This document shows positions 32,454-35,855 of a stretch of 64,000 nucleotides of DNA, piece after piece. A program made the position numbers and the translations under genes. A model generated the notes under the pieces. That model saw only the letters and a program-made list of their open reading frames with translations, had not been told where the DNA came from and did not search any database. The stretch comes from a virus, in the IMG/VR virus record IMGVR_UViG_3300032093_000042, positions 40,909 through 104,908 of that record; one strand, 5' to 3'. Each line of letters begins with the position of its first letter. The stretch's first letter is position 1.

Positions 32454-33095
32454 ATGAAAAAAGCATCAGGTAAAAGTAATCTATCAATTGTAAAAGATTA
32501 CGTCGAAGGCAACCGTCCATTTGTACAGTTTGGTTACGATCCCAATTTAAACAATAATAAACGCAAAGAAGGTGAAGAGTGGGAAGACTCACAAGGTAGA
32601 AAGTGGATTTGGAAAAATGGTGTAAAACGTAGAGTTCCAAAGAAAGCTAAAATTATCAACGAACAACGTTGTAAAGAATGTAATATGGATGTTCGGTGGG
32701 GGAATTATTTAGATGATCGTGTATGGCCAAAAACGGGCATGTGTTACGATTGTTATATTAATTTTCAAACCAATCTGAAATTGATTGGTATGTTTGAAAT
32801 TTACAACGAACTTCAAGATTTGAAGAATGAACGTAGTATTTTAGAAGACTATAAGAAAAAATTTGAAGAAAGCAAAAAATTTTGTGAAGAAAATCAAGGT
32901 AAACCAGTTGAATTTTTAGAAGAAGATGGTTCTTTTGAACGATGGGAAGGTATTCAAGATTATAATAAAATACTAGAAGATTTAAATAAAGATTTGGAGT
33001 TACTCTATAAACGTTTAGAAGAACTAAATGCCAAAATAAAAGAGTACGAAGAACAATATGAGTCAGCAAAATCTCAGAGAAATAATAAAAAGTGA
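32454..33095 (+). CDS. Hypothetical Zn-finger/coiled-coil protein upstream of terminase
   Basis: CKEC..CYDC; overlaps the terL start; possible terminase accessory subunit (unproven). Confidence 0.55.
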   Translation: MKKASGKSNLSIVKDYVEGNRPFVQFGYDPNLNNNKRKEGEEWEDSQGRKWIWKNGVKRRVPKKAKIINEQRCKECNMDVRWGNYLDDRVWPKTGMCYDCYINFQTNLKLIGMFEIYNELQDLKNERSILEDYKKKFEESKKFCEENQGKPVEFLEEDGSFERWEGIQDYNKILEDLNKDLELLYKRLEELNAKIKEYEEQYESAKSQRNNKK

Positions 33096-33903
33096 GTATA
33101 AGAAGTGTATAGAAGATCCTATATACTTCATGAAAAAGTACGTTAAGATTCAACATCCTATAAGAGGAACAGTTGGATTTGAACTATACCCATTTCAAGA
33201 AGAGGCTTTGGAAGAGTTTGTTGATAATCAATTAAACATTGTTCTTAAAAGTCGTCAGATGGGTATTAGTACTCTTACCGCCGCATATAGTTTGTGGTTA
33301 ATGACGTTCCACAATGATAAGAATATTCTTTGTATTAGTATTACTCAAGAAACCGCAAAAGAAATCGTTACCAAAGTAAGATTTGCAAATGATAATCTTC
33401 CAAGTTGGTTGAAAGTTCCTTGTGTAGAAGACAATAGATTATCATTACGATTGAAGAATGGATCTCAAATCAAAGCGGTATCATCTGCCGGTACCGCAGG
33501 TCGTTCATCAGCTCTATCATTACTAATTATTGACGAAGCTGCATTTATCGATGGTATTGAGGAAATTTGGCTGTCTGCTCAATATACATTATCTACCGGT
33601 GGTAGAGCTATTATATTAAGTACTCCCAACGGCGTTGGTAACTTCTTCCATAAAACTTGGGTTGAAGCTGAAGAAGGTAAAAATAACTTCAAGACTATAC
33701 GATTGCCATGGCATTTACATCCAGAAAGAGACCAGACTTGGAGAGATAAACAAACAGAATTGTCGGGTGTGAAAGGAGCCGCACAAGAATGTGATTGTCT
33801 ATGGGGAGACTCTGTTGTTAGAGTTAAAGATAAATTGTCTGGAAAAGAATTTGATATTTCTTTGGAAAAGTTATATTCTGGGGATTTACAATTATATGTA
33901 TAA
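33058..33903 (+). CDS. terL: Terminase large subunit, N-terminal ATPase part fused to split-intein N fragment
   Basis: LYPFQ, Walker A KSRQMGIST, Walker B LLIIDEAAF, STPNG, W..HP.RD..W, AQECD followed by intein start CLWGDS. Confidence 0.93.
   Translation: MSQQNLREIIKSEYKKCIEDPIYFMKKYVKIQHPIRGTVGFELYPFQEEALEEFVDNQLNIVLKSRQMGISTLTAAYSLWLMTFHNDKNILCISITQETAKEIVTKVRFANDNLPSWLKVPCVEDNRLSLRLKNGSQIKAVSSAGTAGRSSALSLLIIDEAAFIDGIEEIWLSAQYTLSTGGRAIILSTPNGVGNFFHKTWVEAEEGKNNFKTIRLPWHLHPERDQTWRDKQTELSGVKGAAQECDCLWGDSVVRVKDKLSGKEFDISLEKLYSGDLQLYV
33796..33900 (+). mobile_element. Split intein N fragment (35 aa, atypically short)
   Basis: CLWGDSVVRVKDKLSGKEFDISLEKLYSGDLQLYV*; block A (CL.GD+.V) and I..LY, then stop. 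Confidence 0.88.
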
Positions 33904-33924
33904 TACATGAATGTGATTGCGACT
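33895..33924 (+). promoter_or_regulatory. Late-promoter variant TATGTATA followed by a copy of the intein-less terL target site (putative operator)
   Basis: TATGTATA at 33895-33902, 4 nt before ATG 33907; ACATGAATGTGATTGCGACT (33905-33924) vs joined exteins ACAAGAATGTGAT|TGTGATT, 17/20 identical. Confidence 0.55.
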
Positions 33925-34665
33925 CATACGCATATGCCTAAAAATTATGCATCTATAGGATGGAATAAAATCAAACAACAATTAAGTTGTGAAACAGATT
34001 TATATTCAACCGAGGAAACAAAATCCGAATTGTTAAAAAACGATTATTATAAATTTTTATTTGGTCGTGCAAAGAATAGAACTTTGATGAAACAAAATCC
34101 AAAATTATACAAATCTATTCTTTTTCATACGGAGATTCTAGAAAAATCATTTAAACAACAACAAAGTTACAAGGGATGGTATAGTTTTTCGTACCGAATT
34201 CGTTTTATTGTTGAACATAACTACGATTTAATAAAATTGAAATGTCAATGTGGAAAAAAAATAACATGGACTAAATATTGTCGTAGATGTCCTGAATATC
34301 ATAAAACCCAGACCGGTAAATCACACACTCCGGAAACAAAACAAAAAATGAGAGTATCCGCGTTAAAGTATCTATCAGAAACAAAAGGACAAATTATACC
34401 CCGTTATAACAAGAGATCAATACAACTGATAGAGGAATTTGGTAATAAACATGGATATACATTTAGACATGCTGAAAACGGAGGTGAGGTTTTTCTTAAA
34501 GAACTTGGTTATTGGTTGGATGCATATGATGAGAAAAATAACGTCGTGTTGGAAATATATGAAAAAAGACACTATAAAAATGGTAAATTGAAACAACGAG
34601 ATTTCCAACGAGAAAATGAAATTAAAAATTTATTAGGGTGTAAATTGTTCACGATTGACATATGA
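33907..34665 (+). CDS. Free-standing homing endonuclease (Zn finger, NUMOD3-like motif, Vsr/DUF559-like nuclease domain)
   Basis: CQCG..YCRRC; HTPETKQKMRVSA; YWLDAYD....VLEIYE..H..RD..RE; lies between the two intein halves. Confidence 0.78.
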   Translation: MNVIATHTHMPKNYASIGWNKIKQQLSCETDLYSTEETKSELLKNDYYKFLFGRAKNRTLMKQNPKLYKSILFHTEILEKSFKQQQSYKGWYSFSYRIRFIVEHNYDLIKLKCQCGKKITWTKYCRRCPEYHKTQTGKSHTPETKQKMRVSALKYLSETKGQIIPRYNKRSIQLIEEFGNKHGYTFRHAENGGEVFLKELGYWLDAYDEKNNVVLEIYEKRHYKNGKLKQRDFQRENEIKNLLGCKLFTIDI

Positions 34666-35003
34666 ATCATTCGAAAATTAAACTAAATACTAGATTTCAG
34701 ATTTTGACTCCGACTGGATATCAGGATTTTTTTGGAATCAGAAAAGTAAAAAAAGATTGTTATTATACCATTTTATTGAGTAACGGAAAAATAATAAAAT
34801 GTTCGGATAATCATTCATTTATTTACAACAACGTCGAGGTTCGATCTCATGATATCAGTATTGGATCAAAAATATCAGGAGTTGATGGTATAGAGGTGGT
34901 TGTTGTATCAATAGAAAAATTTGAAAACACGATTGATTTGTATGATATAGTAAATGTATCAGGTGGTAATATTTTTAATGTAGATGGAATTGTTTCACAT
35001 AAT
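34662..35003 (+). mobile_element. Split intein C fragment (114 aa)
   Basis: QILTPTGY..F.GI.KV, IKCSDNHSF (block B), LYDIVNV (block F), NVDGIVSHN/C (block G with +1 Cys). Confidence 0.9.
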
Positions 35004-35855
35004 TGTGATTTTTCTACTTCTGGTAATCAAGTTGTTAGTGTAGATGTTCTTGAGTTTTACAAACAAACATATTTAAAAGATCCTATAGAAAAACGTGGTA
35101 ACAATCAAGATTTATGGATCTGGGATTATCCAAATTACAGCAAAAACTACATATTGACGGCGGATTGTGCTAGAGGAGATGGTGGAGATTTTAGTGCATT
35201 TCATGTTATTGACATTGAAACAATGGAACAAGTGGCTGAATACAAAGGTCAACTAACCACTAAAGATTACGGTAATTTATTAGTCAGTGTAGCTACTGAA
35301 TATAATAACGCATTGTTAGTTGTAGAAAATAACAACGTAGGATGGGGAACTCTTCAACAGATTATAGATAGAGACTATCAGAATACGTTTTATAGTGCAA
35401 CCGATCTTACTATTGTAGATGTAGAAAAGTCTTATAGTAATAAATTACACGCGCAAGATAAAAAATTAGTCGCTGGGTTTACAACAACGAGTAAAAATAG
35501 ACCATTAATAGTGAGTAATTTAGAGTTATTTTTTAGACAAAAACAAGTTATAATCAAATCAAAACGGTTATACGAAGAATTGAATGTATTTATTTGGAAC
35601 GGACCGAAAGCCGAAGCGATGAGAGGTTATAACGACGATTTGGTGATGTCTATTGGTATAGGATTATGGGTTCGTGAAACTGCTTTGAGGCTTAGAAACG
35701 ATCAAATTGCATATAATAAAGCTATGATTTCTAAAATATCCAAAGTAACAAGTCCTGTAATATTACCTAGAGAAATTAGCTCTATACCGGATTATCAAAA
35801 GACACTTGAATTTTCCGTTAATGATAAAAAAGAAAGTTTAACTTGGTTATTGTAA
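34662..35855 (+). CDS. terL: Split-intein C fragment fused to terminase large subunit C-terminal nuclease part
   Basis: After SHN: CDFSTSG, ADCARGDGGDFSAF, VENNNVG, GFTTT, YNDDLVMS RNase H-fold terminase nuclease motifs; ATGA overlap with the endonuclease stop. Confidence 0.93.
   Translation: MNHSKIKLNTRFQILTPTGYQDFFGIRKVKKDCYYTILLSNGKIIKCSDNHSFIYNNVEVRSHDISIGSKISGVDGIEVVVVSIEKFENTIDLYDIVNVSGGNIFNVDGIVSHNCDFSTSGNQVVSVDVLEFYKQTYLKDPIEKRGNNQDLWIWDYPNYSKNYILTADCARGDGGDFSAFHVIDIETMEQVAEYKGQLTTKDYGNLLVSVATEYNNALLVVENNNVGWGTLQQIIDRDYQNTFYSATDLTIVDVEKSYSNKLHAQDKKLVAGFTTTSKNRPLIVSNLELFFRQKQVIIKSKRLYEELNVFIWNGPKAEAMRGYNDDLVMSIGIGLWVRETALRLRNDQIAYNKAMISKISKVTSPVILPREISSIPDYQKTLEFSVNDKKESLTWLL

Follow-up and report, generated by a model that had tools for sequence, protein, structure and literature searches.

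The split terL locus

The window, that is, the whole stretch of 64,000 nucleotides of viral DNA that was analysed, contains a terL gene that is split by an intein and whose parts all lie on the plus strand. The N-extein, which is the ATPase half of TerL, spans 33058..33795 (Pfam Terminase_6N, 1.3e-12; PHROG terminase large subunit, 3e-41) and ends with ...AAQECD, the DNA reading ...GCACAAGAATGTGAT at 33795. It runs directly into IntN (33796..33903), an atypical short N fragment of the GOS-TerL/AceL-TerL type with 35 aa (CLWGDS...LQLYV; 33796-33900) and a stop codon at 33901-33903. A free-standing endonuclease gene of 252 aa follows at 33907..34665 with its ATG at 33907, then IntC with 114 aa (34662..35003), which ends with ...VSHN (...CATAAT at 35003), and finally the C-extein, the nuclease half of TerL, at 35004..35855, which starts with CDFSTSG (DNA TGTGATTTT at 35004). 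With the N part and IntN, the free-standing endonuclease, and IntC and the C part as adjacent ORFs, the layout is that of a fractured gene, and by its sequence, i.e. the lengths of IntN (35 aa) and IntC (114 aa) and the residues C1 and C+1, the split intein belongs to the GOS-TerL/AceL-TerL type. Atypical split inteins of this type are known from TerL, with an IntN of 25-37 aa and an IntC of >100 aa (PMC11766414). The joined exteins of the window read ACAAGAATGTGAT followed directly by TGTGATT, and the spliced product QECD-CDF has the sequence of intein-less homologues (QECDCDF or QECDCNF), so splicing is predicted to restore a normal TerL. At 34659-34665, the stop codon of the endonuclease and the ATG of IntC overlap as ATGA. 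Both ORFs start with Met-Asn (ATGAAT), and this short direct repeat could be a route to a precise loss of the endonuclease gene.

Two elements mark the border between IntN and the endonuclease gene. One is a variant of a late-gene box, TATGTATA (33895..33902, plus strand), which overlaps the IntN stop codon and ends 4 nt (ATAC) 5' of the ATG. The other is ACATGAATGTGATTGCGACT (33905..33924, plus strand), a copy of the empty terL site, the putative homing site, with a conserved 14-nt core at 33906-33919. The box in its usual form, TATTTATA, occurs in the window 24 times on the gene strand and 11 times on the other strand, and at least 10 ORFs of the window have TATTTATA followed by 3-6 nt and then the ATG (examples of such sites are 11784, 30321, 40362, 45853, 46789, 49029, 58474 and 60966). 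As this box at this spacing is the standard upstream signal, TATGTATA can be taken as the standard signal of this phage, and the earlier note was right in describing the copy as adjoining a late-box variant 4 nt before the ATG; in relatives the copy adjoins TATTTATA itself. The box is a candidate promoter or translation signal. If it is a T4-like late promoter, the mRNAs would be leaderless or nearly so, and if not, it would be an unusual translation signal.

The free-standing endonuclease

The endonuclease matches no family in Pfam or PHROGs, a profile search of PDB sequences returned only a GAL4 zinc-cluster match that is spurious, and a tblastn search of cultured phages gave only distant partial matches and no annotated relatives. 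The family to which it belongs has 3541 representatives at E<=0.001. The N-terminal ~110 residues are common to the closest subfamily only, and the rest of the family has a zinc ribbon, a NUMOD3-like helix and the C-terminal domain in common. In an AF2 model (pLDDT 85), residues 1-11 are disordered and residues 165-252 form a PD-(D/E)xK fold that is Vsr-like according to structure comparison. The Z scores of this part are moderate with Vsr (1cw0: Z 6.4, 96 aligned residues, rmsd 6.2) and with the catalytic domain of I-Bth0305I (3r3p: Z 6.4, 73 aligned residues, rmsd 3.9), and RAP-domain chains reach Z 9-10. Foldseek gave 3r3p with a probability of 0.91, and no match at E<=0.001. Because the modelled C-terminal fold aligns with Vsr, I-Bth0305I and RAP domains, the middle gene is predicted to encode a Vsr-like free-standing homing endonuclease, similar to those described by Dassa et al. 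and by Taylor et al. (PMC3239194), which is recognizable by its fold and not by detectable sequence similarity. The family has invariant acidic and His residues (E190, E194, D205, E216, E219 and H222), D232 is nearly invariant, and from these residues a composite E-D-x-H-D motif could be formed. An alternative start of the endonuclease at 33934 is the counterpart of the start in the closest relatives.

Some related loci (L067, L069, L071, L073, L075, L079 and L088) encode a subfamily whose N-terminus carries an additional CxxC...HxxxH module. The intein junction lies two codons earlier (QE/C) in most of these loci, though not in L067 and L075. The endonuclease starts of this subfamily overlap the IntN stop, some of them after a Shine-Dalgarno-like AGGAGG, and no homing-site copy is present in any of its loci.

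A copy of the empty terL site at the endonuclease start

The copy at 33905-33924, directly after the IntN stop, is identical with the joined exteins of the window in 17 of 20 positions, which confirms the initial observation in sequence and position. Two of the three mismatches (TGC and GAC) had been regarded as synonymous changes, and they are in fact codons of natural empty alleles. A scan with IntC-TerL-C identified 66 intein-less terL alleles in relatives (L174-L241), the C-extein proteins of which are 85-94% identical to that of the window. The commonest form, found in 20 of the 66, is ACAAGAATGTGAT followed by TGCGACT, and with this form the copy agrees in 19 of 20 positions, the lone difference being an A-to-T change that makes the ATG. 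The junction codons of the empty alleles vary (TGC/TGT, GAC/GAT), and the occupied alleles that were checked (the window and the L013 group) have TGTGATT, not the commonest empty form TGCGACT. Intein-bearing and empty terL alleles coexist in a natural population, and the element is thus polymorphic at terL, as expected for active homing. It is this polymorphism that points to the terL junction as the likely target of the endonuclease.

The earlier note had proposed to compute how often such a match would be expected by chance. On both strands of the window there are 2 matches with at most 3 mismatches, against 0.02 expected from shuffles, and the second match is the occupied N junction itself (33783..33802, plus strand; ACAAGAATGTGAT followed by TGTCTAT). 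Its first 16 nt are still those of the empty site, as the intein also begins with TGT. A search of the whole 105-kb record revealed neither additional copies of the core nor another copy of the endonuclease.

Relatives with 89-90% identical endonucleases carry ACAAGAATGTGATTGCAACC, which has no ATG and is followed by a start 7 codons downstream, and ACAAGAATGTGATTGCGACC; the variants end with ...GCAACC in L013 and with ...GCGACC in L164. In the window's lineage, the ancestral copy would therefore have matched the empty site across the junction in 20/20 positions or nearly so. That the third mismatch creates the endonuclease ATG, as had been proposed, is correct for the window, but it is a lineage-specific trait, since the closest relatives (L001-L006) have the copy without an ATG, upstream of the start. 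A CATGA variant, with the ATG in the copy and the standard spacing to the box, is shared by the window with the distant loci L043, L051, L039 and L040, and it must therefore have arisen more than once.

Recurrence in related loci

An alignment of endonuclease homologues yielded 80 loci, which represent 49 distinct arrangements that fall into three groups. The core CAAGAATGTGATTG is present with at least 11 of 14 matching positions between IntN and the endonuclease start in 26 of these 49 distinct loci, and only 0.8% of random 120-nt windows of the same loci reach this threshold. A chance resemblance in AT-rich DNA, for which nothing but the shortness of the match can be put forward, is refuted by this recurrence together with the 0.02 matches expected per window and the 19/20 identity with natural empty alleles, and its probability is negligible.

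The first class consists of 19 distinct sequences from about a dozen lineages, with endonucleases that are 49-57% identical to that of the window. In this class, CAAGARTGYGAYTG is found 119-125 nt after the N junction, behind the IntN stop, and it starts 2-4 nt after a TATTTATA-like box. The information content is highest over the core and falls to near zero or background level in both flanks. Measured against IntN as well as against the endonuclease, the core is found in frames 0, 1 and 2. Since the core falls in all three frames and always adjoins the late box, the copy appears to be a selected DNA or RNA element and not a coding sequence, and a coding constraint is ruled out by the varying frames. 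In the window, the copy lies in the part that encodes the N-terminal 11 residues, which are predicted to be disordered. The Gln codon in the class-1 copies is CAA in 16/19 and CAT in 3/19 cases and never CAG, and in the real N-exteins it is CAA or CAG. A co-variation of the copy with synonymous sites of its own N-extein, which would indicate gene conversion or co-evolution, is not evident.

The part that is conserved in the whole family is the N-extein end plus the Cys codon TG(Y), 14-16 nt in total, and the C-extein-specific part (GAYT) is confined to the lineage of the window, apart from a weak occurrence in one other lineage. The copy had been described as spanning a junction that no longer exists in this allele, and this is true for the window's lineage, but family-wide the core is the N-extein end with TG(Y), and this is kept also by an occupied junction.

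The second class, with 13 sequences, has a related motif, CAAGAAKGYGAC, which is read in frame as the tail of IntN (...QE[CG]DYL, followed by two stop codons) and runs directly into a box, TATTTATAATAA, so that the motif ends where the box begins. As compared with their own junctions, the class-2 motifs are not individually significant (p 0.1-0.9), and for this reason class 2 is counted as having a related motif only. The remaining loci, about 30%, have no copy. In these, the endonuclease start overlaps the IntN stop, or there is an in-frame fusion of IntN with the endonuclease, and others have an N-terminal zinc-finger extension together with a Shine-Dalgarno-coupled start. The expectation that other terL loci would carry such copies has thus been borne out in the 26 loci that match the core, but not in this last group.

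An extension to other fractured genes did not succeed. Of 66 gp41-type split-intein loci that were recognized by their C-intein motif, 24 have complete and distinct upstream regions, and a significant junction copy upstream of GIY-YIG or other endonucleases was found in 0/24, so that the copy is not a general feature of fractured genes. The best of these loci, L098, has a weak N-extein-like stretch with 14/20 matching positions right after the IntN stop (p about 0.05), and the gene there is a different one of 463 aa. In the helicase loci of the gp41-1 type (L093-L158), GIY-YIG genes follow a perfect hairpin with TATAAATA in the loop, in agreement with Dassa 2009.

The copy as a part of the endonuclease cassette

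Natural variants of the terL locus indicate where the copy belongs. L173 (L173:2381-2540) has the split intein without an endonuclease, and there the IntN stop, TCATATACATT and the ATG of IntC follow each other without any copy, the gap being 11 nt. L173 is collinear with its endonuclease-bearing relatives up to ...TCATATGTATTAT, and the extra DNA of the relatives starts exactly at the copy and ends at the ATG of IntC. In L261 (L261:2389-2560), a contiguous mini-intein occupies the same terL site, and nothing that resembles QECDC is present at the split point. Because the copy is absent in both L173 and L261 and the insertion begins at the copy, these alignments identify the copy as the 5' end of the endonuclease cassette.

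This has consequences for two explanations that would see the copy as a historical remnant. One was already given as an alternative in the earlier note: an intein may once have contained a target-like sequence into which the endonuclease homed, and the copy would be what is left of it. The class-2 motif, which is in frame as the IntN tail, would be compatible with such an origin, but L261 and L173 have no such sequence at the split point of an intein in the same terL site, and the class-1 copies lie after the IntN stop in varying frames, which makes this explanation very improbable. The other is that the cassette was captured together with ~20 nt of terL, either from an earlier position or during the repair of a cleaved site, and that the copy has no present function. 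Such an insertion scar would explain why the copy is the exact 5' boundary of the insert relative to L173, and why it spans the junction in the window's lineage like an uncut empty site. However, 14 nt without any function would not outlast a divergence of the proteins to ~50% identity while the flanks randomise, and the fact that the copy always adjoins the late box, on one side or the other, also points to a use. A neutral scar is hard to reconcile with this conservation and must be considered improbable.

Two further loci, L164 (2306-2540) and L254 (2259-2500), have lost most of the endonuclease gene by independent internal deletions, which in both cases have left the box, the copy and the start in place, together with the 3' end, i.e. 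the last codons that overlap with the start of IntC. From their sequences, this suggests that the expression of IntC-TerL-C may depend on the ends of the cassette. The product of the deletion in L164 is an in-frame mini-ORF of 17 codons.

Operator or RNA element

A system with a similar arrangement is known from the td intron of phage T4. The homing endonuclease I-TevI has an operator that is 15/20 identical to its homing site and overlaps a late promoter, and I-TevI binds to this operator but cuts it about 100-fold less well (Edgell et al. 2004, reviewed in PMC2988022). This precedent, to which the earlier note had referred, is thus well documented. By analogy, the DNA-binding part of the endonuclease would recognize the CAAGARTGYGAYTG core in the copy as it does in the target, the copy would not be cut since the flanking context for cleavage is missing, and a nuclease bound there, on or beside the late box and the start codon, would keep its late expression low in the manner of I-TevI. 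An operator is favoured because of the identity with the target, the conservation of the sequence, the contact with the box, the link to the cassette and the precedent of I-TevI, and it is quite conceivable, albeit still a tentative assignment, that the copy is an I-TevI-like operator that is bound but left uncut. This view presupposes that the endonuclease binds the copy and leaves it uncleaved, that the box acts as a promoter and that repression follows from the binding. The more comprehensive view, in which this conserved box is the recognition core of the endonuclease and serves as the uncut operator of a portable cassette that throttles the nuclease together with the coupled IntC-TerL-C, is possible but more speculative.

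A difficulty for an operator is the occupied N junction, where the core is still intact because TG(Y) is also the start of the intein. A nuclease that recognizes only the core would bind there and could cut its own terL, so that whatever decides whether a site is cut must be sought outside the core. In the case of I-TevI, this discrimination is achieved through distance and the cleavage motif. As to the deletions that keep the copy in L164 and L254, either they are recent or the conserved box serves another role, e.g. in the expression of IntC-TerL-C. Apart from this, it speaks against an operator that ~30% of the related loci have no copy, that the class-2 motifs are not individually significant and form a conserved hairpin, that there is no evident synonymous co-variation, and that the gp41-type loci are devoid of the copy.

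Another explanation would be a control at the RNA level, of the Dassa or Gibb-Edgell type that is known from mobE and I-TevI. The copy would then be an arm or a loop of a 5' hairpin that contains the box and hides the endonuclease start in read-through transcripts, and it might in addition set the translation of the coupled IntC-TerL-C, with the likeness to the homing site being only historical. According to Dassa 2009 (PMC2677866), hairpins, often with TATAAATA, are found upstream of 15/16 endonucleases of fractured genes. In class 2, a hairpin with CAAGA / TCTTG around TATTTATAATAA is present in 13/13 sequences with some compensatory changes; the partner is a complementary TTCTTG ~20 nt downstream, and the start codon lies in or beside the 3' arm. 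Also individual class-1 sequences can form hairpins in which the box pairs with the copy, and the loci that have lost the endonuclease, L164 and L254, retain this region. On the other hand, RNAalifold detected no shared structure in 18 class-1 sequences, the local hairpin of the window is unremarkable (z -0.94), and what class 1 conserves is the primary sequence, even at bases that a fold would place in loops, with pairing partners that vary from lineage to lineage. A hairpin alone gives no reason for a 19/20 identity with the homing site. An RNA element is thus well supported for class 2 but, as an account of the copy, less likely than an operator, and it has to be kept in mind that an operator and an RNA element are not mutually exclusive, as I-TevI has both.

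Comparison with known systems

The locus shares with I-TevI the homing-site-like sequence at the endonuclease start, with 15/20 identical positions in I-TevI and 17-19/20 here, and the position of this site on or beside a late promoter-like box. I-TevI has a hairpin that hides the start, and a comparable hairpin is clear only in the class-2 relatives, not in the window. The two systems differ in the nuclease, which is of the GIY-YIG type in I-TevI and Vsr-like with an N-terminal binding region here, and in the genetic setting, since I-TevI is intron-encoded, whereas the endonuclease described here is free-standing inside a split intein and its presumed target is the insertion site of a protein-splicing element. 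Moreover, the conserved part of the copy is here also kept at the occupied junction, unlike in I-TevI, and binding and repression are established for I-TevI but predicted from the sequence for the terL endonuclease. Late boxes beside or inside a stem that can cover the start are known also from mobE (Aeh1 nrdA) and segB besides I-TevI, and class 2 clearly resembles these, whereas what the window and class 1 have kept is the sequence, with a structure that is either weak or not maintained.

The fractured genes described by Dassa 2009 (PMC2677866), among them the Lake Gatun GOS-TerL, have the same gene order with a Vsr-like endonuclease, an endonuclease stop that overlaps the IntC start, and late-promoter-like elements upstream. 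The passages of that paper that keywords lead to describe hairpins and two complementary motifs and do not mention a copy of the extein junction; as compared with these passages, the conserved element is here the junction copy, and class 1 has no shared hairpin. A literature search on split-intein loci, which covered Dassa 2009 in this keyword-based way, found no description of a copy of a homing site or junction.

The prototype of EDxHD/Vsr-like homing endonucleases, I-Bth0305I, has a 14-bp pseudopalindromic specificity core (PMC3239194). Like the terL endonuclease, it combines a Vsr-like C-terminal nuclease (Z 6.4 over 73 residues) with N-terminal DNA binding, and the core found here is of the same length (14 nt), its outer triplets, CAA/TTG, being palindromic. 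However, the two proteins are not detectably similar in sequence, the N-terminal domains differ, the cores are distinct (TTxG-N6-CxAA in I-Bth0305I and CAAG-N6-ATTG here), and an operator has not been reported for I-Bth0305I. The parallel of the 14-nt cores may thus serve only as a lead.

The logic of a homing-site-like operator is known from T4 introns, and what is new here is the combination with a different nuclease family, a split intein and many uncultured phages. If the nuclease binds the conserved box, self-repression by a mimic of the homing site would have arisen again in a second, unrelated endonuclease family, this time in the setting of an intein rather than an intron, and it could be a general means by which the toxicity of homing endonucleases is kept in check. 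One could then read the target specificity of this Vsr-like subfamily from the sequence upstream of each gene, and this read-out of the recognition core from sequence data would be available for an almost uncharacterised family with >3500 members, with uses in target prediction and engineering. It would also mean that the supply of the packaging enzyme is tied to the level of a selfish element.

The natural forms of the terL site, i.e. empty, with a mini-intein, split without and with the endonuclease, and with the endonuclease deleted, make it possible to follow the formation and decay of fractured genes, and they include the GOS-TerL/AceL-TerL type of split intein, which is used in biotechnology. 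Along with L066 and L068, where an in-frame fusion joins IntN to the endonuclease at this terL site, these forms resemble a complete natural series of gain and loss.
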